Origin: an uncultured Bordetella sp.
GTDB taxonomy: Bacteria; Pseudomonadota; Gammaproteobacteria; Burkholderiales; JACQAP01
DNA length: 41,141 bases
Assembly (NCBI GenBank): GCA_964402495.1
Contig: CAYODB010000006.1
Span: forward strand, 1-41,141
Reading direction: 5' to 3'
This document shows, one piece after another, positions 3,194 through 34,663 of this stretch (the stretch's first letter is position 1; each line of letters begins with the position of its first letter). The notes under the pieces are model-generated. The model did no database searches, had not been told where the DNA came from, and saw nothing but the letters and a program-made list of their open reading frames with translations. A program made the translations under genes and the position numbers.

Positions 3194-3217
3194 AAAAAAA
3201 ACGCCCGCAAGCGGGCG
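3194..3217 (-). terminator. Intrinsic terminator of the ABC-amidohydrolase operon
   Basis: On the minus strand, CGCCCGC-TT-GCGGGCG followed by T8. Confidence 0.8.
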
Positions 3218-3266
3218 CCCATCCTCCCTGAGAAGAAGGTTTGTTGTTTTTTCTTTTTGTTATCTC

Positions 3267-4541
3267 TTACGCGATCTGCCGCTGCGACTGGCTGGCGACC
3301 TGCGGTTCCTTGTGGAACTGGCCGTCCTTCATGATCATCAACAACTTGCTGGCGTCCTGCAGCAGCTTGACGTTGGCGACCGGGTTGCCGTCGACCAGGA
3401 TCATGTCGGCGAGGAAGCCCGGCTTGACCTGGCCCAGTTCGTTGCCCATCTTCATGATTTCGCCGCCGAGCCTGGTAGCCGACAGGATGGCATCCATCGG
3501 CGAAAAGCCCAGCAGGTTCACGAAGTGCTCGATGTCGCGCGCATTGGTGCCGATCGGGTTCCAGGCAAAGCCGTAGTCGCCGCCCGGCAGGATGCGCACG
3601 CCGCGCTTCTTCAGTTCCTTCATGTTTTTGATGCCGATGTCGAGCTCGATGCGCATACCCATGCTCTCGGCCACTTGCGTGGTAATGCCCCACTTCGCCG
3701 CTTCGTTAAGCGTGGTGTAGTTGATGCCGAGTGTCGGCGCCACGAAACACCAGTCCTTCGCCGCTTCCAGCGCATCACAGGCCTCTTCGTCCACCAGCGT
3801 GGCGTGATAGATCACTGCGACGCCATGCTTCAGGCAGAGCTTCACCGATTCCGCGCTGCGGGCATGCGCCGCCATGCGCCTGCCGTGCGCGTGGCCGACA
3901 TCGCAGACCGCGGCGATCTCGGCTTCGGTCATCACGGTCTGGTGCGCGCGCGCATGCGGAATGAATTCGTCGCCCGACGGATTGATCTTCAGCGTATCCA
4001 CGCCCTCGCGCACCATCAGGCGCGACATCTTGCGGAACTCTTCAGGACCGTCGCAAATGACCGCAAAGGTTTCGCGGTGCATATGCATCATGCGCACGTC
4101 GCCCAAACCCGAGGTCACCGTCATCTCCGGGCTGGCCGCCAGGGTGCGCGGTCCGGGGAAGTCGCCGGCATTGATCGCGTTTCGCAGCACCACATCGAGC
4201 CGGGGCTTGGCGGAGGCTGCGCTGTTGCAGGCCGTGAAGCCCTGGTCGAGCATTTTCTTCGCGTTCAGCACCGTGCGCAGCATGTGTTCCTCGGGCGGCA
4301 CGAAGCCGAGACCCTCGAGATCCGGCGTATCCAGAAAGGTAATGTGCGAATGCGATTCGACCAGGCCGGGCATCAGCGTCGCCCCGCCGCCATCGACCAC
4401 CTTGGCACCCTCGGTCGGGATCGCCGAGCCTTGCGGCGCAACGGCCTTGATGCGGTTGCCTTCCACCAGCACCTGCCCCGCAAACGGCGGAGCGCCCGTG
4501 CAGTCCAGCACATTGACGTTCTTGAACAGAATCTTAGCCAT
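3267..4541 (-). CDS. Metal-dependent amidohydrolase (COG1228, prolidase/imidazolonepropionase-like), paralog 1
   Basis: MPGLVESHSH (HxH), LKIN, AAHAR, IYHAT, GGDYG, G+VKPGFLADMILVDGNP; overlaps the upstream ATPase gene by 8 nt. Confidence 0.9.
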   Translation of the reverse strand: MAKILFKNVNVLDCTGAPPFAGQVLVEGNRIKAVAPQGSAIPTEGAKVVDGGGATLMPGLVESHSHITFLDTPDLEGLGFVPPEEHMLRTVLNAKKMLDQGFTACNSAASAKPRLDVVLRNAINAGDFPGPRTLAASPEMTVTSGLGDVRMMHMHRETFAVICDGPEEFRKMSRLMVREGVDTLKINPSGDEFIPHARAHQTVMTEAEIAAVCDVGHAHGRRMAAHARSAESVKLCLKHGVAVIYHATLVDEEACDALEAAKDWCFVAPTLGINYTTLNEAAKWGITTQVAESMGMRIELDIGIKNMKELKKRGVRILPGGDYGFAWNPIGTNARDIEHFVNLLGFSPMDAILSATRLGGEIMKMGNELGQVKPGFLADMILVDGNPVANVKLLQDASKLLMIMKDGQFHKEPQVASQSQRQIA

Positions 4542-5634
4542 TTCCTTCCTCCTCGCCGTAATACAAGTTTGCGCCGCTTGCCGAATTGAAAAAATGCAGC
4601 TTTTCCTGCTTGAATGAAAACCGAACCACCGTATCGATGCCCAGTTCGAGCCGGGCTGGCACGGTAGCTTTGATCAGGCACTCCCCTGCCCGAAGGGTGA
4701 CCACCTTCTCCACGCCCTGATTCTCCACCCCATGAACCCGGGCTTCAATAGCTTCGTTCGCTCCGACCGCGATATCCTCCGAGCGGATCCCCAGGGTCGC
4801 CGGTCCCGAGAGCCTGGCGGCCTTGCCGCCCGCGGCCCGGTCCACAGGTACTTCGAAAACGCCCGGGACGATGATCGCCCGACCGCCACTGACATTGGCC
4901 GGCAGCAGGTTCATGGCGGGCGAGCCCACGAAGGTCGCCACAAACGTATCGTGCGGCTGGTTGTAGATCTGCTGTGGGGTGCCCACCTGGATGATATGGC
5001 CCTGGTTGAGAACGCCGACCTTGTCGCCCATGGACATGGCTTCGACCTGATCGTGGGTGACATACAGAAAAGTCGCCCCGAGCTTCATCTGCAGGTCCTT
5101 GAGCTCCGAACGCAGGAGTTCGCGCAGCTTGGCGTCCAGGTTGGACAGGGGTTCATCCATCAGGAATACGCGCGGTTCCCGGACAATGGCGCGACCGATG
5201 GAAACACGCTGCATCTCGCCGCCGGACAAGCGGTCGGTCTTGCGTTCCATCAGGTGTTCGATGCGCAGGGTCTTCGCCGCTTTCGCCACGCGCTGGTCCA
5301 TCTCCTGCTGCGACATCCGCCTCACTTTGGACTTGAGGGGAAACTCCAGGTTCTGTTTCACCGTGTAATGCGGATACAGCGAGTAATACTGGAACACCAG
5401 CGCCACGTCGCGTTCGGCGGCGCTCCAGTCCTTCACGTCCTGTTCGGCAATCGAAATGCTGCCGCTGTTCGGGCTGTCCAGGCCCGCGATCAGTCGCAGG
5501 GTGGTGGTCTTGCCCGCGCCGGTCGGGCCGAGCAGCACGAAGAACTCGCCGTTGGCGATGTCGAGGTCGAGGTTGTTCAGCGCCGCATGGCTGCCGTACT
5601 TTTTGGTGACGTTATCGAGTCTGACGCTGGCCAT
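4534..5634 (-). CDS. CUT1 (MalK-like) ABC transporter ATP-binding protein
   Basis: GPTGAGKTT, LSGGEMQR, LMDEPLSNLD, YVTHDQVEA, C-terminal TOBE-like region. Confidence 0.95.
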   Translation of the reverse strand: MASVRLDNVTKKYGSHAALNNLDLDIANGEFFVLLGPTGAGKTTTLRLIAGLDSPNSGSISIAEQDVKDWSAAERDVALVFQYYSLYPHYTVKQNLEFPLKSKVRRMSQQEMDQRVAKAAKTLRIEHLMERKTDRLSGGEMQRVSIGRAIVREPRVFLMDEPLSNLDAKLRELLRSELKDLQMKLGATFLYVTHDQVEAMSMGDKVGVLNQGHIIQVGTPQQIYNQPHDTFVATFVGSPAMNLLPANVSGGRAIIVPGVFEVPVDRAAGGKAARLSGPATLGIRSEDIAVGANEAIEARVHGVENQGVEKVVTLRAGECLIKATVPARLELGIDTVVRFSFKQEKLHFFNSASGANLYYGEEEGNG

Positions 5635-5639
5635 GGCCT

Positions 5640-5745
5640 AGCCCGCATTTCTCGCAGGGGCGCGAGATGATGGCGTGTGCAGCGACACTCCTGATTCAGT
5701 CGGATGCGGTTGCATAGGGGGGAGGTCCTGTGAGAAATGCGGGCT
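5640..5745. mobile_element. 106-bp MITE-like element or internally deleted IS remnant
   Basis: 19-bp terminal inverted repeats AGCCCGCATTTCTC(G/A)CAGG (18/19 match) span essentially the whole gap between the two ATPase genes; no transposase. Confidence 0.6.
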
Positions 5746-6854
5746 CATAGCCTGATGTGCAGCGACTCGCCGGTACGGGTGCTGAAGAAATGGGTTTGGG
5801 TTTCGTCCAGCCGGGCCCACACCACGTCCCCGGCGTTCGCCACGTAGCCGGACGGCGTGCGCGCGCGCAGCATCTGCCTGCCGAACTTGAGGTCCACGAT
5901 GTCGTAAGGCCCCAGGGGTTCGATAATGTGTGCCTCGACGGGGACATAACCGCTGGTCTGGGAGCGAGCGACGAGAATACCCTCCGGACGGATGCCCACG
6001 GCCAGTTCGTCCTCCGAATGTTTTTTGCCGACGATCATGGCGTGCAACTTCTGCGGAAACGGCAGGGTCGCGTCGTTGTCGCCGAGCACTACCTGGGTGC
6101 CGTTGTCCGCCGGCCGCACCACCCCGCTGACCACGTTCATGATCGGGCTGCCAATGAACTGGGCGACGAACAGGTTGGCCGGATGCTGGTAGACCTCGGT
6201 AGGCGTTCCCACCTGCTGCAGGATGCCTTCGTTCATGATCGCGATCCTGTCGGCCATGGACATGGCCTCCACCTGGTCGTGGGTCACGTACACGGTCGTC
6301 GCCTCGTTCTCGATGTGCAGGCGCTTGAGTTCCGTGCGCATTTCCTCGCGCAGCTTGGCATCCAGCGCACCGATCGGCTCGTCCATCAACAGCGCCTTGG
6401 GCCGGCGCACCAGCGCCCGCCCAATTGCGACCCGCTGCAGGTCGCCGCCGGACAGCGCGCCGGGGCGTTTGTTGAGCAGGTGCTCAATCTTCAGCGCCTT
6501 CGCCGCTTCGCGAACACGCCGGTCAATGGTCTCCTTCGACTCGTTGGTGGCGCGCAACGGAAAAGCGATGTTCTCGTAAGAGGTCAGGTGCGGATACAGC
6601 GCATAGAGCTGGAATACGAATGCGATGTCGCGGTCCGCGGCTTGCAGGGCCTGAACCGGCTTGCCGTCGATCAGTATGTCACCCGTATCGATATCTTCCA
6701 GGCCGGCAATGGCGCGTAACGTCGTGGTCTTGCCGCAGCCGGACGGCCCCAGCAGCACCACGAACTCGCGATGCCTGATCTCCAGGTTGAGCTTCCTGAT
6801 GATGTAGTTGTCGCCGAAGTATTTTTCGACGTCTTTGAGGACGATGTCGGCCAT
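5745..6854 (-). CDS. CUT1 (MalK-like) ABC transporter ATP-binding protein
   Basis: GPSGCGKTT, LSGGDLQR, LMDEPIGALD, YVTHDQVEA. Confidence 0.95.
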   Translation of the reverse strand: MADIVLKDVEKYFGDNYIIRKLNLEIRHREFVVLLGPSGCGKTTTLRAIAGLEDIDTGDILIDGKPVQALQAADRDIAFVFQLYALYPHLTSYENIAFPLRATNESKETIDRRVREAAKALKIEHLLNKRPGALSGGDLQRVAIGRALVRRPKALLMDEPIGALDAKLREEMRTELKRLHIENEATTVYVTHDQVEAMSMADRIAIMNEGILQQVGTPTEVYQHPANLFVAQFIGSPIMNVVSGVVRPADNGTQVVLGDNDATLPFPQKLHAMIVGKKHSEDELAVGIRPEGILVARSQTSGYVPVEAHIIEPLGPYDIVDLKFGRQMLRARTPSGYVANAGDVVWARLDETQTHFFSTRTGESLHIRL

Positions 6855-6861
6855 GTGAGGC

Positions 6862-6917
6862 GGTGATTGGTGAACAGTGAACAGTGAACGGCGATTAGTG
6901 ATTGGTGATTGGTGACT
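6862..6917. repeat. Tandem array of eight degenerate heptamers (RGYGAHY)
   Basis: ggtgatt ggtgaac agtgaac agtgaac ggcgatt agtgatt ggtgatt ggtgact. Confidence 0.8.
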
Positions 6918-7113
6918 GGGGCTCGCGGTCTTCCTTCGGAAGCGGCTTGATCTTGGAGAACACCGAGAATCCGATCAGGCCCGCGAGGGTGATAGTCACG
7001 CCATAGCGGTGCAGCACCTCGATCCAGGGCTGGCACAGCGCCACGATGCCGAAAACCATGGTGTACATGGACAGCGGTTCCAGAATCTTTGCGCTCAGCT
7101 CTCTGAATGTCAT
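6895..7113 (-). CDS. Small two-helix membrane protein within the ABC operon
   Basis: MTFRELSAKILEPLSMYTMVFGIVALCQPW...GVTITLAGLIGFSVFSKI; two hydrophobic segments, co-oriented between permease and ATPase; start uncertain (7113 or 7140). Confidence 0.65.
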   Translation of the reverse strand: MTFRELSAKILEPLSMYTMVFGIVALCQPWIEVLHRYGVTITLAGLIGFSVFSKIKPLPKEDREPQSPITNH

Positions 7114-7180
7114 CGTTAGTGTCCCGGTTTTGCTTTCCAATTCAGGGCCGAGCTACGAGGCCGCGGTTCGAGTCTCCGTT

Positions 7181-7215
7181 CCCCTCGCCCCTCGTCCCTC
7201 GTCCCTCGCCCCTAC
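7181..7215. repeat. Tandem heptamer array (YCCCTCG x4-5)
   Basis: cccctcg cccctcg tccctcg tccctcg cccctac, abutting the permease stop codon. Confidence 0.75.
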
Positions 7216-8171
7216 TTTCTGATCGCCCCAAAGGTGACGCCCCTCAGCAAATGCTTACGCAGCAGGAAGGTAAACACCGCCACCGGCACCAAAAACAGGA
7301 AGGTGCCCGCCGCGATTACGGTCCAGTCGGTCACGCCGGACCCCAGTTGCGACGGAATGTACGGCGGCGCGGTCTGCGCGCGGGAGTTGGTCATCATCAG
7401 CGCGAAGGCGTATTCGTTCCAGGCCGTGATGAAGCAGAACACCGCGGTCGCCGCGATGCCGGTTGCCGCCTGCGGCAGGACGATCTTGAAGAAGGCCTGC
7501 ATGCGGGTGTAGCCATCCACCAGCGCCGCTTCCTCGTACTCGATCGGGATTTCGTCGATGAAGCCCTTCATCAACCACACCGAGAACGACAGGTTGAATG
7601 CCGTGTAGAGAATGATCAGCCCGATGTGCGTGTCGACCAGCCCGACGGTGCGGTACATCAGGAACATCGGGATGGCGACCACCACCGGCGGCAGCATGCG
7701 CGTGGAAAGGATGAAGAACAGCCAGTCCTGCTCGCCAGGCATTTTGAAACGCGAGAATCCATAAGCCGTGAGCGTGCCCATGGCCACGGCGAGGAACGTG
7801 CTGGTGACCGCGATGATGATGCTGTTGAGGAAACGGCTCAGGTAGCCGGAGCTTTCGAGCTTTCCATCGGCATCCTTGATGATGCGCTCGCCGGCATCGT
7901 AGACGCGCTTTTCGTACCAGGGTGCCTTCTCGTAGACTTCCGGTTCGACCTCGCCGCGCATCTGCACGCGTGCCGTAAACAACTTCACGAATGCGGTAAG
8001 TTCCGGTTCGAAGAGGACGGTTGGCGGAACGGTGGTGGCAAGGCTCCTCGGCTTGAATGCGGTCGAGCTGATCCAGTACAGCGGCAGCAGATAGATGATC
8101 AATACCAGGAATACCAACGCGACCAGCATCCGGTTCCAGAGGCGATTTCCTTTCGACGTGACGGTTGCCAT
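7212..8171 (-). CDS. Carbohydrate ABC transporter permease (MalG-like)
   Basis: Start MATVTSKG at 8171, 2 nt after the upstream stop; EAA loop EYEEAALVDG, FITAWNEY. Confidence 0.93.
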   Translation of the reverse strand: MATVTSKGNRLWNRMLVALVFLVLIIYLLPLYWISSTAFKPRSLATTVPPTVLFEPELTAFVKLFTARVQMRGEVEPEVYEKAPWYEKRVYDAGERIIKDADGKLESSGYLSRFLNSIIIAVTSTFLAVAMGTLTAYGFSRFKMPGEQDWLFFILSTRMLPPVVVAIPMFLMYRTVGLVDTHIGLIILYTAFNLSFSVWLMKGFIDEIPIEYEEAALVDGYTRMQAFFKIVLPQAATGIAATAVFCFITAWNEYAFALMMTNSRAQTAPPYIPSQLGSGVTDWTVIAAGTFLFLVPVAVFTFLLRKHLLRGVTFGAIRK

Positions 8172-8173
8172 TG

Positions 8174-9067
8174 CTAACGCGCTTTCGCCTGGTTCAGGTA
8201 CTTCACATATATGTTCGTAATGGCCAGCACCATGATCAGCACGATATAAGCCATGGCGCAGGACTTGCCCGTCTGCCATTCCTGGAACGCCATCTTGTAC
8301 AACCGGATCGCGATCAGTTCGGTCGAATCCATGCTGGTCATGATGAAGGCCAAATCAAAAGTCTTGAACGCCTCCATGGTGCGGAAAATGATCGCGATCA
8401 GCAGCAGTGGCGTGACCAGCGGCAGCGTGATCCGGGTAAAGGTGTACCAGCGCGACGCGCGGTCGATGGCCGCCGCTTCATAGAGGTGCTGCGGAATTGC
8501 CGACAACCCGGCGAGCGAGAGCAGCATGACGAAGGGCGACCACATCCAGATGTCGGTCAGCGCCACGGCGTAGAGCGCGACTTCCGCGTCGGACAGCCAC
8601 TCGAAGTCTTCGAGGCCGAGGGCGTAATTAATGATGCCCCACGAAGGGCTGTACAGCAGTTGCCAGAACAGGCCGACCACGGCCATGGACATCATCATCG
8701 GCAACAGCAGCAGCGTGGTGACCAGACCCTTGGCCGGCACCTTGCGGTTGAGCAGCAGGGCCACGCCGAAACCCACCAGCACCTGACCGCCGACGGAAAC
8801 GAGCACGTACTTGGCGGTGATGGTGAAGTTGTTCCAGACATACGGGTCGGAAAGCAATTCCCGGTAGTTCTGCAATCCGACAAAATTGGCCGCGTCGTTG
8901 GACGACGCGCGGAAATCGGTGAACGAATAGCCGAGCGAATAGATCAGCGGAAAAATATTGAAAACGATCAGGAAAATGATCGTCGGCACAATGAACACGT
9001 TGCGGATGGCGATGTCGCTCAAGCCCCGCCTCGCCGCGGCGGAGCCAGGATCCAGCCTGGCCAACAT
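8174..9067 (-). CDS. Carbohydrate ABC transporter permease (MalF-like)
   Basis: FVGLQNY, LYEAAAIDRAS (EAA loop), ITLPL, multiple TM segments. Confidence 0.95.
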   Translation of the reverse strand: MLARLDPGSAAARRGLSDIAIRNVFIVPTIIFLIVFNIFPLIYSLGYSFTDFRASSNDAANFVGLQNYRELLSDPYVWNNFTITAKYVLVSVGGQVLVGFGVALLLNRKVPAKGLVTTLLLLPMMMSMAVVGLFWQLLYSPSWGIINYALGLEDFEWLSDAEVALYAVALTDIWMWSPFVMLLSLAGLSAIPQHLYEAAAIDRASRWYTFTRITLPLVTPLLLIAIIFRTMEAFKTFDLAFIMTSMDSTELIAIRLYKMAFQEWQTGKSCAMAYIVLIMVLAITNIYVKYLNQAKAR

Positions 9068-9136
9068 GGTCTTTCGTCTCCTCCTGCGCGGCCGCGTCTG
9101 TCGCGCGTCTTGCGCAGAACAGGTAAATGAGTGAAT

Positions 9137-9230
9137 GCGCGAAGGGGGAAGGCGTGAAGAGGGAAGGGTGTAATGCTTTCAAGCGTCTTTACCCTTCACG
9201 CCTTCCCCCTTCACCCTTCCCCCTTCACGC
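9137..9230. repeat. Short inverted-repeat element with purine-rich heptamer-like arms
   Basis: gaagggggaaggcgtgaag (9141-9159) is the perfect reverse complement of 9194-9212; more degenerate units lie either side. Confidence 0.8.
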
Positions 9231-9243
9231 CGTCCTCGCAACA

Positions 9244-9271
9244 AGCGGGGAGGACCGTAGCCCTCCCCGCT
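9244..9271 (-). terminator. Stem-loop after the binding-protein gene (mRNA-stabilising hairpin or weak terminator)
   Basis: AGCGGGGAGG / CCTCCCCGCT 10-bp stem, no clear U-tract. Confidence 0.5.
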
Positions 9272-9284
9272 GCGCGCAAACAAC

Positions 9285-10601
9285 TTACTTGAGGTGTCCG
9301 TACTTCCTGAAAGTCTTGTCCCAGTCGTTGGCGATTCCGGCCATGGCTTCCTCAGCCGTGCCCTTGTTGCCGACCACGAACGGATGCAGGCGCTTGTTCA
9401 TCGAGTCCAGCAATTCCGCATACTCCGGAACCGCCCAGAAATCCTTCACCATGAACATGGTCTGGTAGAAGGCTTCGTTGTAGGGCGTGGCCTTGCGGAA
9501 CTCGTCGGACTTGAGCACGTTGGCGTTGCAGGTATAGCCGCCAAGCGCGGCCCACTTCTTCTGCACGTCTTCCTTGATGAACCACTCCAGGAACTTCATG
9601 GACTCCGCCTGCTTCTTCGAGTACTTGATCACCGACACGCCCTGGCCGCCGAGCGCCGCGAAGCGCTTGCCGGTGGGGCCTTCCGGATTGGCGAAGTAGC
9701 CAGTCACCTTGGCGTGCTTGTTGGTCGCTGGATTGGTCAGCGCCGGGAAGAAAGCGAAGAAGTTCATGCTCATCGCCGCCAGGCCTTCCGTGATCGCCTG
9801 GTTGTTTTCCATGAAGAACACCTTGCCCCAGCCTGGCGGGGTGTATTTGTACAGCTCCTTGTAGAACTTGAGCGCGTCGACCGCGACCTTGTTGTCGATG
9901 ACACCCTTGACCTTATAGGTCTTGTAGTCGCCGAGTTCGCCGCCGAATCCGAACAGCACGTTCTCGTAGCCCATCACCAGCGCGTCATAGCTGTTGTCGG
10001 TATAGATGGCGATGCCGTAACGCTTCTGGTCCGGACGATGGAAGAACTCGGCGATGTCGCGCATCTGCGCCCAGGTCTTGGGCACCGCGAGGTCATAACC
10101 GAATTTCTTCTTGAACGCGGTCTTTTCCTTCGGATCCTCGAACCAGTCCTTGCGGTAGGACCAGCCGGTGGCGTCGCCTTCGAGCGGCACGGCCCAGTAC
10201 TTGCCGCTGCCCTTCGGGTATTCCGCGTAGCCGGCAACGGTCGCGGGCGCCATGCTCTTGTCCACGCCGTGCTTCTTGAAGAAATCGGTCAGGTCAACGT
10301 AATGGCCGTTGGTCGAGCCCGCGCCCAGCCACTGGGAATCGCCGACCACCATGTCGTAGGCGTCGCCGCGTGCCGCAAACTCGCGGAATGCCTTGGTCTG
10401 GAAGTCCGGCCACGGCGTGGTTTCCACCGTCACCTTCACCCCGGTCTGTTTTTCGTAGTCCTTGACCAGCTCCTGCAGGTAGTTCGCAGGATCCCACTGC
10501 GCCCACAGGATCTTCAGCGTTTCCGCGGCGGACGCCGAATTGCCGGCGAGCGCGAAAACCGCACCGGCCAGCAGGCCGGCCCATTTTTGCTTGTTCATCA
10601 C
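9285..10601 (-). CDS. Sugar/polyol ABC transporter extracellular solute-binding protein (family 1)
   Basis: Signal peptide ending ASA-AE, YEKQTGVKVTVETTPW, YDMVVGDSQW, YRKDWFED, PKTW. Confidence 0.93.
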   Translation of the reverse strand: MMNKQKWAGLLAGAVFALAGNSASAAETLKILWAQWDPANYLQELVKDYEKQTGVKVTVETTPWPDFQTKAFREFAARGDAYDMVVGDSQWLGAGSTNGHYVDLTDFFKKHGVDKSMAPATVAGYAEYPKGSGKYWAVPLEGDATGWSYRKDWFEDPKEKTAFKKKFGYDLAVPKTWAQMRDIAEFFHRPDQKRYGIAIYTDNSYDALVMGYENVLFGFGGELGDYKTYKVKGVIDNKVAVDALKFYKELYKYTPPGWGKVFFMENNQAITEGLAAMSMNFFAFFPALTNPATNKHAKVTGYFANPEGPTGKRFAALGGQGVSVIKYSKKQAESMKFLEWFIKEDVQKKWAALGGYTCNANVLKSDEFRKATPYNEAFYQTMFMVKDFWAVPEYAELLDSMNKRLHPFVVGNKGTAEEAMAGIANDWDKTFRKYGHLK

Positions 10602-10723
10602 TTCCTCCTCCTCGTTGCGTTGGTCTTGTATGTGCCCCCGCTCCGCTCCTGAACCGCAAGCCGGCCGGTTGCCCCCACAACTAAAATCGCGGTCTTACCG
10701 CCGCGTTCCACAATCAAAGCTGC

Positions 10724-11467
10724 TTACTTTGCTTTTGCACGACTCCTTTTGGCCGCCAGCGTACTCCTGCTGCGGACTCCATTGCCGCGGACTACTTTGC
10801 TGCGCGCCGGGCTTGCAGCCGCCAGCCGCCGGCCATGGGATTCTTCCTTCAACGCCGCCTGGATCAGCGCGTGGCAGGTCCACAGCGCCACTTCCTCCGC
10901 GCGCTTGCCGTCCAGGCCCCAGATGTCCTTGAGCACAACGAAGGCTTCGGTGCCGAAAATCAGGCTCATTGCCTGCGTCAGGCGTTTGAACCCGTCCTGC
11001 GTAATCCTGGCCTTCAAGGGCTGCAACGCCGAATTGAGCAAACCGATGCGATGCCCGCGTACCATGGGCGCCTCGTCACCCAGCAAACCCGCATGGCGGC
11101 GCGCCCACTGGTCCAGCGCCAGCCGCAGCGCCGCCTTCAGCGTCGCCTCGTAGTTCTCCATCCGCGGGTAGGCGAAGGTCACCAGCTCGGTGACCCGCTC
11201 CTCCGGATCGGTCGAATCCGAGGTCCAGGCCAGGATGGGGCCGAGCGCCTCGTCCACCGCGGCTTGTATGAGCGCAGCCTGGGTCGGGAAATAACGGTAC
11301 GCGGTCGCCCTCGACACCTGCGCCGCCTCGGCCACGTCGCTGACCGACGGAATCAGTCCGGCCTGCATCAAACGCATCGCGGCATCCAGCATGATCTTGC
11401 GCATGCGGGCGCGCGGACCCTTGTCGGCGGATTCTGTGAGACGCCGTTCTTGACCTGAGACTAGCAT
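10724..11467 (-). CDS. TetR/AcrR family transcriptional regulator
   Basis: C-terminal 247 aa of the 936-aa track ORF; HTH SVSDVAEAAQVSRATAYRYFPT; start taken as ATG 11467. Confidence 0.88.
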   Translation of the reverse strand: MLVSGQERRLTESADKGPRARMRKIMLDAAMRLMQAGLIPSVSDVAEAAQVSRATAYRYFPTQAALIQAAVDEALGPILAWTSDSTDPEERVTELVTFAYPRMENYEATLKAALRLALDQWARRHAGLLGDEAPMVRGHRIGLLNSALQPLKARITQDGFKRLTQAMSLIFGTEAFVVLKDIWGLDGKRAEEVALWTCHALIQAALKEESHGRRLAAASPARSKVVRGNGVRSRSTLAAKRSRAKAK

Positions 11468-11490
11468 CTCAATACGATACCAGCGTCTAA
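11437..11490. promoter_or_regulatory. Three tandem imperfect palindromes, putative TetR operators
   Basis: TGAGACgccgTTCTTG (11437), TGAGACtagcATCTCA (11456), CGATACcagcGTCTAA (11475); 19-nt period, overlapping the tetR start. Confidence 0.55.
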
Positions 11491-11686
11491 CAAAAAAACA
11501 ACGATCCTCCGTGAATTTCAACGTTGCGTCGCAGCAGCGAACGGAAGCGGGCTTGAGGTTTTGCTTTCGCGGGAAATCCGGACGGCATCTCTGTTCTCCG
11601 GTTGGTTGCGCGCGCGATGACGGCGCAACCGCTTCCCTCCTTCGCCGCAGACACTTACGGGACCAATCAGGCAAAGAGCGACGCGG

Positions 11687-12880
11687 ATGAAGCGCGTATA
11701 CGTGGTCGGCACCGCCGACACCAAAGGTCCGGAGCTTCTTTACATGAAGTCGCTGATCGAAGCGGCCGGCAGTCCCGCGACCCTGGTCAACGTCGGCATC
11801 CGGGAGCCCCAGGTCGAAGCCGACGTGGCGGCCGCGGAAGTTGCCGCGCTGCATCCGCGCGGCGCACGGTACATACTGGACGCCACCGATCGCGGAATCG
11901 CCGTTGAAGCCATGGGCGAAGCGTTCGCTGCATATATAGCCGCACGCAAGGACATGGCCGGAATCGTCGGCATCGGCGGTAGCGGCGGCACTTCCATCGT
12001 TACCGCGGGTATGCGCCGGCTGCCGGTCGGACTGCCCAAGCTTATGGTTTCGACGCTCGCTGCGGGTGATGTCGCCCAGTTTGTCGGCGCGAGCGACATT
12101 GCGATGATGTATTCGGTCACCGACGTCGCCGGACTCAACCGCATCAGCAGATTGGTGCTCGGCAACGCAGCGCACGCCATTGCCGGAATGGCCAGCCGCA
12201 CCGCTCCGGTCGCAGGCGCGAAGCCGGCAATCGGCCTGACGATGTTCGGCGTAACCACCCCCTGCGTCACCCAGGTCGCCCAGGCGCTCGATCACGACTA
12301 CGACTGCCTCGTGTTTCATGCGACAGGGACAGGCGGCCAGTCGATGGAGCGGCTGGCGGACAGCGGCATGCTCGTAGGCGTCATCGACGTCACCACGACG
12401 GAAGTCTGCGATCACCTTGTCGGCGGCGTATTGTCCGCCGGGCCGGACCGCCTGGGCGCCATCGCCCGCAGCGGCGTGCCCTATGTCGGATCGGCCGGCG
12501 CGCTCGACATGGTGAACTTCTGGGCAATGGATACCGTGCCCGAGCGCTTTCGTAACCGGAAACTCTACAAGCACAACCCAAACGTCACGCTGATGCGCAC
12601 TACTGCGGATGAATGCCGCGACATCGGCACCTGGATCGCGCAGAAATTGAACGCCTGCGAAGGCCCCGTCCGCTTCCTGATCCCTGAGAAAGGCGTATCG
12701 GCCCTCGACGCTCCGGGCCAGGCCTTCCACGATCCCGAAGCCGACCAGGCCCTGTTCGACGCCCTGGAAACGACGCTCAGGCAAACAGCGGCAAGGCGCC
12801 TCTTGCGCCTGCCCTTCCATATCAACGACCCGCAGTTCTCCGCCGCACTGGTGGAGAACTTCCGGGCCATCATCCCTTAG
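11687..12880 (+). CDS. Tm-1-like ATP-binding domain protein (UPF0261)
   Basis: [74 protein letters not shown]. Confidence 0.9.
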
Positions 12881-12898
12881 CACAAGGAAACCCGTTTC

Positions 12899-13729
12899 AT
12901 GGCCGCAATCGAAAGAAAGGCAATCCTCGATAAATTCCGCGACATGGTGAAGCGCCGCGTGCCCATCGTCGGCGGCGGCGCGGGAACCGGCCTGTCCGCA
13001 AAATGCGAAGAAGCCGGCGGCATCGACCTCATCATCATCTACAACTCCGGCCGCTACCGGATGGCGGGCCGCGGCTCGGCCGCGGGTTTGCTGGCGTATG
13101 GAAATGCCAATCAGATCGTCAAGGAAATGGCCGTGGAAGTCCTTCCGGTCGTGAAAAAAACCCCGGTTCTGGCGGGCGTGAATGGTACCGATCCATTCGT
13201 GCTGATGCCGCAGTTCCTGGCCGAGCTCAAGGTTCTGGGATTTTCCGGCGTGCAGAACTTCCCCACCATCGGCCTGTTCGACGGCGTGATGCGCGCCAGC
13301 TTCGAGGAAACTGGCATGGGCTATGGGCTCGAAGTGGACATGATCAAACTGGCCCATGAGCAGGACCTGCTGACCACGCCCTATGTCTTCAACGCCGCGG
13401 AAGCGGAAGCCATGACGGCCGCCGGTGCCGACATCGTCGTCGCGCACATGGGCGTCACGGTTGGCGGCACCATCGGCGCCTCCTCGGCGAAAAGCCTGGA
13501 CACCTGCGTCAAGGAAATCGACGCCATCGCGCAAGCCGCGATGCGCATCCGCAAGGACGTGATCGTGCTATGCCACGGCGGCCCCATCGCCTCACCGCAG
13601 GATGCCGACTACATCCTCAAGTGCACGCAAAACTGCCACGGCTTCTATGGTGCGAGCAGCATGGAGCGCCTGCCAACCGAAGTCGCTTTGACCGAACAGA
13701 CCCGCAAGTTCAAGGCTATTCAATTCTAG
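12899..13729 (+). CDS. TIM-barrel phosphoenolpyruvate-hydrolase-like / TIM-barrel signal transduction family protein
   Basis: [62 protein letters not shown]. Confidence 0.9.
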
Positions 13730-13730
13730 A

Positions 13731-13890
13731 TCTTGAACCACGGAGGACACGGAGGAGAACAAGAAAGATTTCCCCAAAAGGGTGATGTGGTATATGACCC
13801 TTTGCAGACACGGCAAACAATCTGCAGATATTTTTCCCGGCATGTTTTCCTGATTTTCTCCGTGCTCTCCGTGTCCTCCGTGGTTCAAGA
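13731..13890. repeat. CRCRRAG-family inverted-repeat element, complete copy
   Basis: Perfect 24-bp arms tcttgaaccacggaggacacggag (13731-13754) and its reverse complement (13867-13890). Confidence 0.9.
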
Positions 13891-13912
13891 ACTAACAAAG
13901 GGAGAGATAGAA

Positions 13913-14353
13913 ATGATCAAGGTCTATCGAAGCGCCATCATCCATGCGGCGGCGGACAAGGTCTGGAAGCTGATCCGCGACTTCAACGGCCTGCCGAAAT
14001 GGCATCCGGCCATCGCCACCAGCGAGATCGAAGGCGGCCTTCCCGCCGACCAGGTCGGCTGTGTGCGCCGCTTCACGCGCAGGAGCGACGGCGGCCTGTT
14101 GCGCGAGCAGTTGCTCTCGCTCGCGGATGACACCCGCACCCTGACCTACAACATCCTGATATCACCGATGCCGGTGGCGAACTACATGGCCGGCATGCGT
14201 TTCACCCCCATCACCATGGGCGGCGGCACCTTTGCCGAATGGTGGGCAGTGTTCGACGTGACTTCCGGGCCGCCGCAAGTCACCGCTGATGACATCGGCG
14301 ACAACGTATTCGTCGTCGGCTTCGCTTCGATCAATAAGCTGCTCGGACGCTGA
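13913..14353 (+). CDS. SRPBCC / polyketide-cyclase-like ligand-binding protein
   Basis: Start MIKVYRS after GGAGAG; DKVWKLIRDFNGLPKWHP, GCVRRF. Confidence 0.88.
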   Translation: MIKVYRSAIIHAAADKVWKLIRDFNGLPKWHPAIATSEIEGGLPADQVGCVRRFTRRSDGGLLREQLLSLADDTRTLTYNILISPMPVANYMAGMRFTPITMGGGTFAEWWAVFDVTSGPPQVTADDIGDNVFVVGFASINKLLGR

Positions 14354-14363
14354 GGAGCCCACC

Positions 14364-14807
14364 ATGACAAAAATCTTCGTCAGCGCCGTCATCGATGCCC
14401 CCGTCGAAAAGGTGTGGGCCCAGGTGCGCGACTTCAACAACATGCCGGACTGGCATCCGAAATTTTCTCGCAGCCACATCGAAGGCGGGCTGCCCAGCGA
14501 CCAGGTCGGCTGCATCCGCAATTTCGACATTGCCGGGGGTGGCGGCACCATCCGCGAACGCCTGCTTGAACTTTCCGATCTCGAGCACAGTTTCCGCTAT
14601 TGCATCCTGACCTCGCCGCTCCCGGTCGAAGGCTATGTCGCGCAACTGACGCTCTATCCCGTTACGGTCGGCAACAAGACCGTGGGCATCTGGACCGCCG
14701 AGTTCGAAGTCACCAATGGCGACGAGGCCGGCGTCGTGGATGCAGTGGGCAATGGCACCTTCGGCAAGGCTTTCGAGGTTCTGAACGACAGGCTCGCGAA
14801 GCGCTGA
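14364..14807 (+). CDS. SRPBCC / polyketide-cyclase-like ligand-binding protein (tandem paralog)
   Basis: Start MTKIFVS after GAGGAG; EKVWAQVRDFNNMPDWHP; IEGGLP.DQVGC.R.F shared with the previous gene. Confidence 0.88.
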   Translation: MTKIFVSAVIDAPVEKVWAQVRDFNNMPDWHPKFSRSHIEGGLPSDQVGCIRNFDIAGGGGTIRERLLELSDLEHSFRYCILTSPLPVEGYVAQLTLYPVTVGNKTVGIWTAEFEVTNGDEAGVVDAVGNGTFGKAFEVLNDRLAKR

Positions 14808-23461: not shown

Positions 23462-24619
23462 ATGATCAGATTCGGAAGTTTATTTAAACCACTTATGTGG
23501 TTCATGGCATTGCTGCTGGCTGCTTTTGTGGCCGGTTGCGGGGATCAGAGCCCGGACCAAGTCAGCGCCTCTTCGGCCGCGGCCGCGGCCGCGACCCTGC
23601 CGCCACTGGGCACGGAGCAGAGCTTTGCGGTACTCGGCGGCTCGACGGTGACCAATACCGGTTCCAGCGTCGTCACCGGAAACCTGGGTGTCAGCCCGGG
23701 CTCGGCGATCACCGGCTTCCCTCCCGGGATCCTGACCGGAGTGATGCATGCGGCCGATGCGGAGGCGCTTCAGGCTCAGAATGACACCACTACGGCGTAT
23801 ATTGATCTGGCAAGCCAGGCGTGCGATTCCGACTTGACTGGACAGGATCTCGGCGGCAAGACGCTCGTGCCGGGCGTCTATTGTTTTTCGTCCTCAGCTC
23901 AGTTGACGGGTGCGCTCACGCTGGACGCGGGGGGCGACCCCGGTGCGGTCTGGGTGTTCAAGACAGGGAGCACCCTCACCACGGCGAGCAACGCGTCCGT
24001 GCTGCCGACCAATGGCGGACAAGCCTGTAACGTTTATTGGCAGGTTGGCAGTTCCGCGACTCTCGGTACAGGCACTTCGTTCGTCGGCAATATTCTCGCA
24101 CTCACGAGCATTACCCTCACTACCGGCGCAAACGTGTCCGGTAGAACCCTGGCGCGAAACGGTGCAGTGACGATGGATTCCAACACCGTCACCGTCCCCG
24201 TATGCAACATACCGGTCACTTCCTCCCGCCCCACTCTCGGCAAGACCTTCAGCCCGGGCACCATCAATGCTGGCGGGGTATCGACGCTTACCATTACCTT
24301 CAGCAACAGCAACGACACACCCGCCAACCTGACCGGGCCGTTCATCGACAACTTGCCCAGCGGCCTGGTGGTGGTCGGCGGCAGCGTCAGCACCACCTGC
24401 ATCGAGACCCCGCTGTTGTTGGGGTGGTTCATTGTCGATACGGGGAAGGTGGGCCTGACGGCGGAAGGCCTGATCCCGGCCAATGGTTCTTGCACGGTGA
24501 CGGCGAACGTAACCGCGCCGGTCGCAGGCAGCTACATCAATACGCTGCCTGCCGGCGTCTTACAAACCAACCACGGCAACAACGCGGCCCCGGCCGTCGC
24601 GACCCTGACCGTCATTTAG
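23462..24619 (+). CDS. Lipoprotein with DUF3494 (ice-binding-like) domain and C-terminal Ig-like (DUF11-like) domain
   Basis: AGGAG RBS; lipobox FVAG-C; FAVLGGSTVTNTG, GNLGVSPG, TLVPGVY, LTLDAGGD, NVYWQVGSSATLG, FVGNILA; then KTFSPGTINAGGVSTLTITFSN...DNLPSGL. Confidence 0.9.
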   Translation: MIRFGSLFKPLMWFMALLLAAFVAGCGDQSPDQVSASSAAAAAATLPPLGTEQSFAVLGGSTVTNTGSSVVTGNLGVSPGSAITGFPPGILTGVMHAADAEALQAQNDTTTAYIDLASQACDSDLTGQDLGGKTLVPGVYCFSSSAQLTGALTLDAGGDPGAVWVFKTGSTLTTASNASVLPTNGGQACNVYWQVGSSATLGTGTSFVGNILALTSITLTTGANVSGRTLARNGAVTMDSNTVTVPVCNIPVTSSRPTLGKTFSPGTINAGGVSTLTITFSNSNDTPANLTGPFIDNLPSGLVVVGGSVSTTCIETPLLLGWFIVDTGKVGLTAEGLIPANGSCTVTANVTAPVAGSYINTLPAGVLQTNHGNNAAPAVATLTVI

Positions 24620-25681: not shown

Positions 25682-26542
25682 TCAGAAAGGCAGGGAGGTG
25701 AACAGGCCCACTCCGAACACTTCGCTGCTGGTCCGGATGGCGAGCCCGACGCGATCGACATCGAAATATTTCAGTGACCAGGGCTTGCGGCTCATCACGC
25801 TGATGGCAAGCTCGAACTGCTCGCGCAGGCGGTTGTCCGCGTCGCTGAATTCGGCGAAGCGGATCTGATTGAAAAAATAGTAATAGATCGGGGTGAAGCC
25901 GATGAAGGCATCGCGTCCAAACAGGACCCTATTCGTCGGAATCACCAGGTCCAGTCCGATGGCAAGCACGCCGAAGGGCTGGGCCGGACCTCCGCGCGGG
26001 CGGTAGCCGGCGGCGGTCAGGCTGTTCACCAACGAGAATTCGACGCCTTTGTCCTCGCCCAGCAAGAAGCGGCTCTTGAGGCCGAAATCGTAAATCAGCG
26101 CCGATTCCCGGCCGGACAGCTCCTGTCCGAGTCCCGTCGAGAAATAAGGCTTCACGGTCCAGCGACGCGATAGCGGCATTTCCCATTCCAGGCCGGGCAT
26201 CACGCTCACGGTGCTGACCTGTTGGGGAAACTCGCCACTGAAGGCATCGTCGAAGGCGTAGTCGTAGAAGCCGAACGTGACAGGGATTTTCAGTTGCAAG
26301 CCGTACCGGCCTTCGCCAACCGGGCGCAGCACACGGGAGATCGGCAACTGAACGGCGGCAACCGTGCGGTCGCCGGCGGTATAAACCCCGGTGCCGAACG
26401 TGGCCGAGTAGTACCAGTTGATGAGGTCCTGCCTGTCCTGCACCGCGCGCGTCTGCCCGTGCGCGGGCAGTGCCGCGGCCGCAGCCAGCGAGGCAAGCAG
26501 GATCAGGCGTACAACGACGGGGAAAGAAACGGTAAAGCTCAC
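25682..26542 (-). CDS. Putative outer-membrane beta-barrel protein, function unknown
   Basis: Signal-like LILLASLAAAAALPAHG, aromatic alternating strands, C-terminal Phe; start uncertain. Confidence 0.65.
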   Translation of the reverse strand: MSFTVSFPVVVRLILLASLAAAAALPAHGQTRAVQDRQDLINWYYSATFGTGVYTAGDRTVAAVQLPISRVLRPVGEGRYGLQLKIPVTFGFYDYAFDDAFSGEFPQQVSTVSVMPGLEWEMPLSRRWTVKPYFSTGLGQELSGRESALIYDFGLKSRFLLGEDKGVEFSLVNSLTAAGYRPRGGPAQPFGVLAIGLDLVIPTNRVLFGRDAFIGFTPIYYYFFNQIRFAEFSDADNRLREQFELAISVMSRKPWSLKYFDVDRVGLAIRTSSEVFGVGLFTSLPF

Positions 26543-30967: not shown

Positions 30968-31001
30968 TTCACCACGAAGGACACGAAGGTACGCAAAGGA
31001 G
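30968..31001. repeat. Left arm of the CRCRRAG family at the left island border
   Basis: ttcaccacgaaggacacgaaggtacgcaaaggag; no convincing partner within the usual ~200 bp. Confidence 0.75.
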
Positions 31002-31303
31002 TTCAAGAACACAACCGGCGCGGAAGCTAAAAAGAAATCGCAGCTATGTACATGAATTAGCGCACGCCAAGACCCGCTTTGGTGTCGACGCGTTGGTATA
31101 AAAAAACACGCGCGCCTACTCCGCGCGATTTGTTGACTTTCCTCTTTGTCTTCGCCTTGCGTGGGGCTGGTGGCACACCGATAGCAACAATGCTCCCAAA
31201 TCAGCGGCACATGTCGATTAGTCAACATGTCTTCCTGTCGTTTACCTGGACCTGGCTGCCGCACCAAGCGCTCGTCTAGCGCTGCGAGAGGCGATGCAAC
31301 CCC

Positions 31304-31888: not shown

Positions 31889-31900
31889 TCCTCAACGCGG

Positions 31901-32107
31901 CTACGTCGGATTCACATGGTTCATGTGTGCGAACTCCCCTTGTGCGAGAGCGTCGGGCTTCTTCAACTTATACCGTAGTCGCGCGTTCTCGGAGGAAGTT
32001 AGCATTTCGGAATCCCATGAGGCATTCGGCGAAGGCGAGGGCGAGGGCTGGAAGTACTTTGCGCGATACCTTTCTGCTGTCTCGGTATTGTGATCCCTTA
32101 ACCTCAA
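31901..32107 (-). CDS. Short hypothetical ORF, possibly a gene fragment
   Basis: 68 aa, TTG start overlapping the upstream stop by 4 nt. Confidence 0.3.
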   Translation of the reverse strand: MRLRDHNTETAERYRAKYFQPSPSPSPNASWDSEMLTSSENARLRYKLKKPDALAQGEFAHMNHVNPT

Positions 32108-32655: not shown

Positions 32656-32725
32656 CCAGGTCGTCCAATTCGACCAGGTGACCGTGAGCGCCGCCTCTGA
32701 TGGAGACCGGAGCAGCCCTTAAGGT

Positions 32726-33433: not shown

Positions 33434-33469
33434 CGCTTCGTCTGTGCCGGCTTCGTTCAATCGGGTGAC

Positions 33470-33907: not shown

Positions 33908-34012
33908 AGTTTCCTCTCCTTGTTTCCACATGGCGCTGACGGGCTCAGACTAACAACGAGGCGCTCTTCACGAATGAGGTTCGTTAGAGTCTTGCTATCG
34001 AGCAAGCGGCCT

Positions 34013-34659: not shown

Positions 34660-34663
34660 TAGG

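Follow-up and report, generated by a model that had tools for sequence, protein, structure and literature searches.

A TetR-associated divergent locus that places a carbohydrate-class importer beside separate homologs of the two Tm-1 domains

Described relatives and layout of the locus

Within the UPF0261 family, MarK (Saro_1862) of Novosphingobium aromaticivorans (PDB 9MPY) is an ATP-dependent kinase that yields phospho-aromatics and ADP and requires K16 (PMC12624787). Its acceptor hydroxyl is held by G195 and H219, H304 stacks, and phosphate is transferred even though the ATP and acceptor sites lie about 25 Å apart (PMC12624787). Tomato Tm-1 (PDB 3WRV/3WRW/3WRY), the closest solved relative of the UPF0261 protein analyzed here (326 bits versus 202 for MarK), has virus-helicase inhibition as its known role, and plant Tm-1-like fusions hold two domains equivalent to UPF0261 and a TIM barrel (PMC5028733). 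The barrel is also represented by Mll9387 of Mesorhizobium loti (2P10); since its label, "putative phosphonopyruvate hydrolase," is annotation only, we rejected that activity as a basis for assigning function. Further points of comparison are proteobacterial CUT1 importers linked to DhaKLM or DAK genes and the non-hydrolytic 3-keto-glycoside pathway (OGE/HYD/Gfo of Agrobacterium, PMC10628242; levoglucosan Lgd).

We analyzed a 41,141-nucleotide stretch of DNA from an uncultured Bordetella sp. (the window), in which UPF0261 and the barrel are separate genes of a catabolic locus, unlike the plant fusion. ORF calls and a profile search of the window recovered all 12 ORFs intact, confirming the gene order and strands first described from the sequence alone. 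The minus arm begins with a TetR-family regulator (10724..11467; 247 aa, PF00440) and continues with a CUT1 carbohydrate-binding protein (9285..10598; PF01547), a MalF/UgpA-type permease (8174..9067), a MalG-type permease (7212..8171, start at 8171), a 72-aa hydrophobic protein without a Pfam or NCBIfam match (6895..7113), and two MalK/UgpC-type ATPases (5745..6854 and 4534..5634), the permeases and ATPases being assigned by profile matches. The last gene of this arm encodes a metal-dependent amidohydrolase of the prolidase/carboxypeptidase-like subgroup (3267..4541; 424 aa, PF01979) and overlaps the second ATPase gene by 8 bases. On the plus strand lie the UPF0261 gene (11687..12880; 397 aa), the PF09370 barrel gene (12899..13729; 276 aa), each present once in the genome, and two genes with SRPBCC (Polyketide_cyc2) profile matches (13913..14353 and 14364..14807), whose products are 44% identical. 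An intrinsic-terminator-like hairpin with a 9-pair stem and a T run (3199..3220, minus strand), 3' of the amidohydrolase gene, is the likely end of the minus arm, with position as its sole support, terminator-like sites in the region numbering 13 against 11.4 expected, which is near chance.

The grouping of these genes is not due to chance, given that the 16 same-genus stretches fetched are collinear up to their contig ends (7 carry all 12 genes) and that UPF0261 and the barrel lie upstream of the binding-protein gene in 44 of the 54 loci with enough flank. The tetR-ABC-UPF0261-TIM-barrel core is kept across Beta- and Alphaproteobacteria, and all eight other binding-protein orthologs of at least 69% identity, which come from one family only, have a barrel gene at most about 4 kb away. 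These counts support the earlier proposal of a conserved uptake-and-catabolism locus. The linkage that it predicted is borne out for the transporter and the Tm-1-like pair and is weak for the amidohydrolase, as discussed below.

Kinase site, acceptor pocket, and partner barrel

The UPF0261 protein matches PF06792 (202 bits), PF23189 (326 bits), and PRK02399 (PRK02399.1-3, 664.5 against a cut-off of 648), and it aligns with MarK over the full length of the fold (E 2e-58). All residues of the MarK mechanism are present, namely, D11-T12-K13 at the ATP site, G188 and H211 at the acceptor site, and H296 at the stacking position, and they are kept in 89 to 90 of 90 aligned homologs. Like MarK, the protein heads a catabolic operon, and it is predicted to be an ATP-dependent small-molecule kinase. 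Given the reaction of MarK (PMC12624787), the statement in the sequence-only reading that no bacterial reaction had been assigned is out of date, although MarK belongs to another pocket subfamily. In the pocket, F283, I285, and H348 of MarK are replaced by M275, N277, and L340 (F283M, I285N, H348L), which are the residues of tomato Tm-1; none of the 90 aligned sequences has His at position 340. Because these three MarK residues differ, kinase chemistry is extrapolated here over a similarity of about 200 bits. The partners differ as well: MarK works with the AcvCDEF carboxylase and a phosphatase, and the MarK paper makes no mention of a barrel (PMC12624787), whereas the window's protein is paired with a TIM barrel and a carbohydrate-class importer. 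No acvCDEF/hpeCBAD genes (biotin carboxylase, phosphatase) were found among the window's ORFs and, together with the altered pocket, this led us to reject orthology with MarK.

A pocket survey of 401 genomes returned 62 full UPF0261 matches, 38 of them high-tier and 24 low-tier. High-tier genes adjoin a PF09370 gene in 36 of 38 cases; no low-tier gene has a barrel within 6 kb, and none of the 24 encodes Asn at 277. As judged by these alignments, the Tm-1 pocket signature is a mark of the barrel-linked UPF0261 subfamily, and Asn277 offers a one-residue marker that separates it from MarK and other UPF0261 groups. The single MarK-type member of the survey (locus L175) has biotin carboxylase subunits and an HAD phosphatase alongside, like MarK, and a further subfamily (three loci) sits directly behind a CUT1 importer, with a class II aldolase next in the locus scanned; by sequence, pocket signatures track pathways. 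Since the acceptor pocket is the same as that of tomato Tm-1, the substrate of this locus is probably informative for the whole Tm-1-like subfamily. A literature search on UPF0261, Tm-1, and PF09370, with a coverage that leaves out most subscription papers and supplements (MarK Datasets S2/S3), found no assignment for the Tm-1-pocket subfamily. Co-folding of UPF0261 with the barrel scored 0.00, a value that carries no weight either way.

The barrel matches PF09370 at 428 bits, and its alignment-based model (pLDDT 91.8, compared with 39 for a single-sequence model) is a (beta/alpha)8 fold that superposes on the ortholog Mll9387 with a TM score of 0.94 and a Z score of 41.8 at about 65% identity. 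The best match outside the family is 4ML9, an uncharacterized barrel whose description names a "conserved phosphate binding site" (233 residues aligned at Z 21.4 and rmsd 2.9). In an alignment of 70 sequences with 54 invariant columns, H226-G227-G228 and G251-A-S-S are invariant and form candidate glycine-rich phosphate loops after strands 7 and 8; a phospho-substrate enzyme is predicted. The ICL/PEP-mutase superfamily (phosphonopyruvate hydrolase 2DUA, PrpB) shares the barrel with a long C-terminal helix 8 (14% identity; Z 17 to 19 to 2DUA, 1ZLP, 3FA3, and 1O5Q), and its members, about 2 Z below 4ML9 but top by Foldseek E-value, count against the phosphate-barrel reading. Enzymes of that superfamily bind Mg through Asp or Glu where strands 3 and 4 end. 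In the window's barrel, by contrast, model strands 90-94 and 117-120 end in G-V-N-G and Q-N-F-P; the Mg-binding acids appear to be absent there, as judged from the general motif of the superfamily and the strand positions of the model. Atlas matches of the barrel are HisA/ThiE/TrpA-like and serve as leads only, their scores (0.75 to 0.81) lying below the tool's reliable range.

Importer and shared promoter region

The transport genes have the features of a CUT1 system in the profile search (an SBP_bac_1 binding protein, MalF/MalG permeases, and MalK ATPases with the OB domain), which upholds the sugar-class importer first proposed. PDB matches of the binding protein are weak (best E 1.6e-18), and searches with the binding protein, TetR, and SRPBCC gave no match naming a ligand. 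The gene for the 72-aa protein is found in all 62 loci with enough downstream flank, and its product probably belongs to this importer clade as a constant accessory subunit. A sister clade of importers that shares this six-gene arrangement, small gene included, is linked to dihydroxyacetone kinase: DhaK/L or DAK comes next in 5 of 5 loci scanned. The binding proteins of the two clades are 41 to 46% identical and have many motifs in common, yet they show 31 fixed differences, so the ligand may differ. A DAK-family kinase follows the importer there, whereas UPF0261 and the barrel accompany it here; by analogy, UPF0261 likely takes the role of the sister clade's dihydroxyacetone kinase. A literature search on the dihydroxyacetone-kinase-linked importer found no papers.

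Sequence comparison places overlapping divergent promoters and two operators at 11450..11490. The predicted plus-arm promoter has its -35 element at 11450-11455 and its -10 element at 11473-11478. Tandem 16-bp inverted repeats with a consensus of about YGAKAC-N4-RTMTCA occupy 11456-11471 and 11475-11490, and a third, weaker operator-like site lies at 11437-11452. An inverted-repeat operator covers the shared promoter region in all 49 TetR-UPF0261 loci that passed the script filter, and a matrix built from alphaproteobacterial loci only, with the window held out, scores the operator pair at 26.4; away from this pair, the highest-scoring site in the genome reaches 5.9. The search of the window's genome revealed no further tandem operator, and no wider regulon was detected. 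We infer that TetR binds the tandem operators. The tetR gene most likely starts at the ATG at 11467 and is likely leaderless: an ATG inside the operator is in frame with tetR in 47 of the 49 loci, and the window has no Shine-Dalgarno-like run before it. The gap separating tetR from the binding-protein gene contains a GC-rich hairpin (10688..10705, minus strand) that is seen in several close relatives.

Candidate pathway and competing explanations

We give about even odds (roughly 0.5) to a TetR-repressed pathway in which a small sugar-derived compound would be imported by the ABC system, phosphorylated by UPF0261, and converted by the barrel. TetR on the tandem operators would keep the two overlapping promoters closed as long as neither the substrate nor its phosphate is present, and the importer would bring in the compound. 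UPF0261 would then phosphorylate a substrate hydroxyl as MarK does, with K13 at ATP and G188 and H211 holding the acceptor hydroxyl. The barrel may use H226-G-G and G251-A-S-S as a phosphate cradle to rearrange or cleave the phosphorylated product; SRPBCC (a cupin in other species) might adjust the ring or tautomer form, and the amidohydrolase could be an added step in which a precursor amide or lactone releases the core substrate. Counting against this pathway, 6 of the 54 transporter loci have neither UPF0261 nor the barrel at the identity cut-offs used.

As to the substrate, our lead guess, a tentative one with a modest chance overall, is an oxidized sugar with a planar ring, for example a 2-hydroxy-3-keto-glycal or 3-hydroxy-4-pyranone; a simple small ketose or polyol has about equal odds. 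Keto-glucal and hydroxypyranones are decay products of 3-keto-glycosides. Orthologs of the 2-hydroxy-3-keto-glucal hydratase (8RO4, 587 bits) flank the importer in 13 of 54 loci, and hydratase orthologs with a related Gfo do so in Rhizobacter-type loci, as in the 3-keto-glycoside pathway; of the 12 same-genus loci showing the relevant junction, 7 have a Gfo/Idh/MocA gene within the operon. However, the Gfo of the window's genus is only 42 to 48% identical to the one beside the hydratase, and tblastn searches of the window's genome (a 406-contig assembly) found neither the hydratase nor the operon Gfo ortholog, XylA, or the rhizobial M24 peptidase. Neither a glycoside 3-dehydrogenase, an eliminase, a keto-glycal hydratase, nor a reductase is present at the window's locus, and the parts of PMC10628242 consulted describe no kinase step for the pathway. 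The hydratase-XylA/B block is likewise found beside the sister importer (L136, L153) and may therefore go with the transporter family rather than with UPF0261. The Tm-1-type pocket is also found with branched-chain-type and nucleoside-type importers and Mo-hydroxylase genes, which a plain sugar substrate fits less well. A literature search on pyranone catabolism gave nothing relevant among the matches listed.

An unlikely alternative is that the tetR-UPF0261-barrel triad works on its own to detoxify or salvage a by-product that is intracellular or diffuses freely, the importer being a neighboring sugar system with its own pathway. Some loci from Vibrio and other gammaproteobacteria (L087, L091, L093, L096) do carry the triad, with a related TetR and operators, but no transporter, and the pair is found with several unrelated importers. 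In rhizobia and Rhizobacter-type loci, moreover, the importer is accompanied by genes for GntR, an enolase-family dehydratase, an epimerase, and a hydroxyacid dehydrogenase; since a long upstream region of its own precedes the rhizobial importer, which directly adjoins the GntR/dehydratase/epimerase block, TetR may not control it there. Against this separation, the importer adjoins UPF0261 or the barrel in 48 of the 54 loci, a quick tree ties it to two separate UPF0261 lineages, and in the window's genus tetR lies only about 125 bases before the binding-protein gene. Somewhat less probable still is the sequence-only reading, in which UPF0261 and the barrel form one complex whose substrate is an imported conjugate of a sugar or polyol that has a hydrolyzable C-N bond, the amidohydrolase being a core enzyme and SRPBCC carrying a hydrophobic part. 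The amidohydrolase has amide hydrolases and the Cc2672 carboxypeptidase as its best PDB matches, and its H-x-H, Lys, His, His, and Asp motifs, which have a metal role, are conserved in the alignment. For this reading, its gene overlaps the last ATPase gene and is kept in the genus. In 4 of 6 other genomes, homologs about 50% identical cluster with UPF0261 and SRPBCC genes and a different importer, an M24 peptidase stands instead in rhizobial loci (25 of 54, mostly one genus), and the UPF0261 and barrel domains are fused in plants and co-evolve. Yet the enzyme occurs at only 9 of the 54 transporter loci and is absent from the triads, which have neither transporter nor hydrolase; we reject it as a core step, regard it from this distribution as peripheral, and find the C-N bond idea weak. 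SRPBCC alternates with a cupin (30 cupin-only loci, 8 SRPBCC-only, none with both; n=44), which suggests a small accessory enzyme; the binding of a hydrophobic moiety has no support. What stands of that earlier interpretation is thus the locus, the importer class, and the linkage.

The remaining alternatives bear on the chemistry, and both are decidedly improbable. In one, the pathway would resemble that of MarK and handle phenolic or heteroaromatic compounds, with UPF0261 phosphorylating an aromatic hydroxyl. Lipophilic rings are frequent ligands of TetR regulators, G188, H211, and H296 correspond to the residues with which MarK binds phenols, and Mo-hydroxylase, FAA hydrolase, and dikinase-like genes accompany some Tm-1-type loci; however, the locus lacks biotin carboxylase and HAD phosphatase genes, the pocket has Asn277 and Leu340 rather than Ile and His, loci of the true MarK type group apart and have no barrel, and the importer is of the carbohydrate class. 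In the other, to which we give the same small chance, there is no kinase/phospho-enzyme pair: ATP would be a cofactor or signal at UPF0261 (compare virus binding by Tm-1), the barrel's phosphate site would hold a flavin, or the barrel would be a sensor. The 25-Å separation in MarK, barrel paralogs fused to Fis-type HTH regulators, and weak profile matches to FMN barrels that align H226GG with AAGG (E 0.02 to 0.15) all speak for it, but MarK transfers phosphate despite that distance, and the strongly conserved stand-alone barrel is found in catabolic operons.

The pair is widespread. A broader version of the preferred pathway, which we hold to be rather unlikely, is a universal two-step route of bacteria, haloarchaea, and land plants, in which the enol hydroxyl of sugar-derived ring enolones (2-hydroxy-3-keto-glycals and maltol- or kojic-type 3-hydroxy-4-pyranones) would be phosphorylated before ring opening or rearrangement in the barrel. 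If true, by-products of 3-keto-sugar chemistry would have a fate not described so far, and tomato Tm-1 would gain an ancestral metabolic function. Sinorhizobium meliloti SMa1334 mutants nodulate normally, and fusion expression is seen neither in nodules nor on rich medium, which argues against a role in symbiosis. With this locus, the ordinary function of Tm-1-type proteins becomes testable: its defined operator is a basis for a ligand-screening reporter, and syntenic loci are found in culturable, non-pathogenic rhizobia, on pRL12 of R. johnstonii 3841 and on pSymA of S. meliloti, for which an insertion mutant exists.

Composition, conservation and regulation of the locus

The twelve genes that the sequence-only reading placed between positions 3267 and 14807 were all found, intact and in the layout it described. 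Profile searches assigned a TetR regulator (10724–11467), a CUT1 carbohydrate importer with two MalK-type ATPases, an amidohydrolase (3267–4541), UPF0261 (11687–12880), a PF09370 TIM barrel (12899–13729) and two SRPBCC proteins; the 72-aa gene (6895–7113) had no family match in these searches. The amidohydrolase ORF overlaps that of the last ATPase by 8 bases. The window's genome carries one copy each of UPF0261 and PF09370; of 36 further genomes in the genus, 23 gave a UPF0261 match. The 16 same-genus stretches fetched, several from the same genomes as loci of the binding-protein search, were all collinear to the contig limits, with all twelve genes present in seven. Of the 12 same-genus loci that cover the junction of the small gene with ATPase 1, 7 have a Gfo/Idh/MocA oxidoreductase gene in between; the window has none there.

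From 500 relatives of the binding protein we retained the best 80, a set with many Mesorhizobium loci, which are hence not independent. Among these best 80 of 500, 54 loci had at least 5.5 kb upstream: UPF0261 and the barrel were both present in 44, one or both in 48, and TetR in 38. In a phylum sample of 401 genomes, the genes of all eight other binding proteins of at least 69% identity, all from one family, have a barrel gene at most some 4 kb away. In a quick tree, the window UPF0261 groups with a rhizobial TetR-linked clade (support of 99), and a second UPF0261 lineage also adjoins the same importer. The locus is real and conserved.

Syntenic loci occur on pRL12 of R. johnstonii 3841 (RL_RS35855-35905) and on S. 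meliloti pSymA. We take SMa1334 to be the S. meliloti UPF0261 ortholog; its 398 aa and three downstream genes agree. According to the available portion of PMC3462710, SMa1334 mutants nodulate normally and a fusion was silent in nodules and on rich medium, which fits a catabolic operon that stays repressed until its substrate induces it.

Sequence prediction places a sigma-70-like promoter in the gap between tetR and UPF0261 (−35 at 11450, −10 at 11473), with two inverted repeats, each of 16 bp, interleaved at 11456 and 11475. All 49 loci passing our filter (42 distinct sequences) keep this combination of promoter and tandem repeats. A held-out operator matrix, built from 33 alphaproteobacterial loci only, scored the window pair at 26.4, a shifted pair with a third site at 23.2 and the best site elsewhere in the genome at 5.9. 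In a separate scan of the loci, a tandem site was also present in a Vibrio triad of tetR, UPF0261 and barrel, scoring 28.3, and ten checked loci without this TetR reached at most 2.9. A reverse-strand ATG within the first repeat is in the TetR frame in 47 of 49 loci. In the window no ribosome-binding run precedes it; on both counts tetR is likely leaderless.

In rhizobia, the gap between tetR and the binding-protein gene is long and has conserved sites of its own. Mesorhizobium loci, including the fetched stretches L046 and L049, have conserved inverted repeats in this gap, upstream of the importer, which we take to resemble GntR/FadR boxes; downstream, the same loci carry a block of a GntR gene, an enolase-family dehydratase and an epimerase.

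UPF0261 and the TIM barrel

The sequence-only reading knew of no assigned bacterial reaction for UPF0261, but one had already been published: in the available text of PMC12624787, MarK, a Novosphingobium member, phosphorylates aromatic hydroxyls with ATP and releases ADP. There, MarK requires K16; the phenolic oxygen is bound by G195 and H219, H304 provides stacking, and the shape of the pocket is set by F283, I285 and H348 (PMC12624787). The window protein shares D11-T12-K13, G188, H211 and H296 (window numbering) with MarK, whereas M275, N277 and L340 replace MarK's three pocket-shaping residues. Tomato Tm-1, a virus-resistance protein in which both domains are fused, has the same M275/N277/L340 signature, and the window protein scores 326 bits to Tm-1 versus 202 to MarK. 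Among 90 aligned homologs from fetched loci, M275 is found in 89, N277 in all and His at position 340 in none. This alignment was chosen by neighbourhood; the marker was therefore checked on the unselected 401-genome sample, which yielded 62 full-length UPF0261 matches, two fragment rows being left out. A high tier (at least 262 bits) comprises 38 of the 62, and a PF09370 gene adjoins 36 of these 38. In the lower tier, all 24 of which were fetched, no barrel lies within about 6 kb and N277 is absent throughout; one member, with the MarK pocket and with biotin carboxylase subunits and a HAD phosphatase as neighbours, serves as a positive control.

Because of its pocket signature and the barrel adjacency in the 401-genome sample, the window UPF0261 is placed by sequence in a distinct subfamily of Tm-1 type that is linked to the barrel and probably has a single acceptor. 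Orthology to MarK was rejected given the Tm-1 pocket residues and the barrel-linked tier. Co-occurrence and co-evolution of UPF0261 and barrel domains have been published previously (PMC5028733, portion available).

An alignment-based model of the barrel reached a pLDDT of 91.8 and a TM of 0.94 on M. loti Mll9387. Its top match outside the barrel family is 4ML9 (Z 21.4, rmsd 2.9, 233 aligned), whose title names a conserved phosphate-binding site, followed by phosphonopyruvate hydrolase (Z 19.2, rmsd 3.6, 235 aligned) and, lower by Z, other ICL/PEP-mutase members, archaeal TIM and NanE; Foldseek E-values order these differently, with the ICL family above 4ML9. ICL/PEP-mutase enzymes have Mg-binding acids on particular barrel strands. 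In the window barrel those strands end in G-V-N-G and Q-N-F-P, and an ICL/PEP-mutase assignment is not established. H226-G-G and G251-A-S-S are invariant in the alignment, and weak profile matches align the former with the AAGG of FMN barrels. We infer that these motifs form a predicted phosphate cradle, and the barrel would therefore use the product of the kinase as its substrate; it may also carry a bound flavin.

Taken together, the core genes likely form a pathway of import, phosphorylation and conversion: the importer would bring a compound in, UPF0261 would phosphorylate it, apparently resembling MarK at this first step, and the barrel would convert the product. The literature covered, including the available main text of the MarK paper, yielded no published assignment for the barrel-linked subfamily. 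The available portions of PMC3333776, PMC6882159, PMC2364660, PMC6867892 and bioRxiv 2023.01.28.526070 give no function for UPF0261/barrel proteins; PMC6867892 lists a fungal UPF0261 among genes raised late in brown-rot decay.

Other UPF0261 and barrel contexts were observed. Three lower-tier proteins (fetched stretches L177-L179) are encoded directly behind a CUT1 importer, with a class II aldolase next in the one scanned, L177; this subfamily is a good candidate sugar kinase. A large barrel-less subfamily (L156-L173, L176) has pocket motifs H-x-H-N-R-L and E/Q-W-D and neighbours encoding aldehyde dehydrogenases, class III aminotransferases, HAD hydrolases and TTT or amino-acid transporters, and would belong to a separate pathway. 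UPF0261 is fused to a branched-chain-type ABC ATPase in L092, L095, L099-L102, L106, L116, L117 and L181, and also in L088, L098, L108, L138 and L139. Downstream of these fusions lie a barrel (absent from L138 and L139), a flotillin and a pair of SRPBCC genes; in some loci one of the pair is fused to a Zn alcohol dehydrogenase, and a split Mo-hydroxylase with MoxR/VWA genes is frequent. Barrel paralogs fused to Fis-type HTH regulators, as well as short divergent copies of the barrel, stand beside the stand-alone barrel in L089, L108, L111 and L180. Many Klebsiella and E. coli plasmids carry the barrel gene as a 48-residue N-terminal fragment only, which suggests a shortened copy carried by a mobile element.

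Importer, accessory genes and candidate substrates

Against solved structures, the binding protein (9285–10598) had no relative with a named ligand. A sister importer clade (24 matches) has binding proteins 41–46% identical and the same six-gene layout; 12 of the 24 were fetched, and in all five whose downstream genes were scanned we found DhaK/DhaL or a fused dihydroxyacetone kinase. By analogy, UPF0261 would take the place of this kinase at the window locus. Since window-type and sister binding proteins have many motifs in common but 31 fixed differences, their ligands are probably related, not identical. In the fetched stretch L010:1-5317, the sister importer lies directly downstream of the two SRPBCC genes, so that UPF0261 and the barrel are flanked by importers of both types.

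The small genes beside the core vary. Among the 44 transporter loci with both core genes (from the best 80 of 500), a cupin occurs alone in 30 and SRPBCC alone in eight, while six have neither and none has both; in 30 barrel loci of the phylum sample, counted by hand, SRPBCC alone occurs in 14, cupin alone in 10, both in one and neither in five. We read SRPBCC and cupin as a putatively interchangeable small accessory enzyme. Of the 54 transporter loci with enough downstream flank (among the best 80 of 500), nine carry the amidohydrolase. Close homologs occur in six other genomes among the 401: four sit in UPF0261 clusters that also encode flotillin and an importer of branched-chain type, one comes after a sister importer and DhaK, and one is in an unrelated setting. 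These occurrences make it a recurrent yet optional member. Four gammaproteobacterial loci consist of tetR, UPF0261 and the barrel alone. A second amidohydrolase in the window (26550–27797, minus strand), is 68% identical to the locus enzyme; its operon also encodes an SDR, an alpha/beta hydrolase and a protein of 286 aa without a Pfam match (25682–26542), and no tandem operator was found near it.

A 2-hydroxy-3-keto-glucal hydratase ortholog (8RO4, which we take to be AtHYD) flanks the importer in 13 of 54 transporter loci among the best 80 of 500; a Gfo gene comes next, often together with XylB/XylA. DUF1080 and ThuA genes were seen in a further barrel locus. In the portions available, PMC10628242 covers the Agrobacterium pathway, and PMC11116085 the breakdown of 3-keto-levoglucosan to keto-glucal and 3-hydroxy-4-pyranones. 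Such compounds are the lead candidate substrate class, at a fairly low probability. Their planar shape and acidic enol hydroxyl would, by analogy, fit a pocket derived from that of MarK but carrying a polar Asn, and they would reconcile sugar-type with heteroaromatic-type neighbourhoods. Three findings speak against them: the window's genome yielded no hydratase match, the genus Gfo is only 42–48% identical to the hydratase-adjacent Gfo, and the hydratase block flanks the sister importer as well.

Other features of the window

A type III restriction/helicase-like gene (1–2120) is truncated where the window begins; a VapBC-type antitoxin/PIN pair (2257–2867) lies directly downstream of the amidohydrolase; the genes of 1–2867 are not kept in relatives' loci. 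On the plus strand, 23495–24619 encodes an ice-binding-like (PF11999) and DUF7933 protein behind an outer-membrane-barrel-like gene. Positions 31000–35000 have a GC content of 52–54%, versus about 61%, with short ORFs lacking a Pfam match, and are possibly recently acquired DNA.
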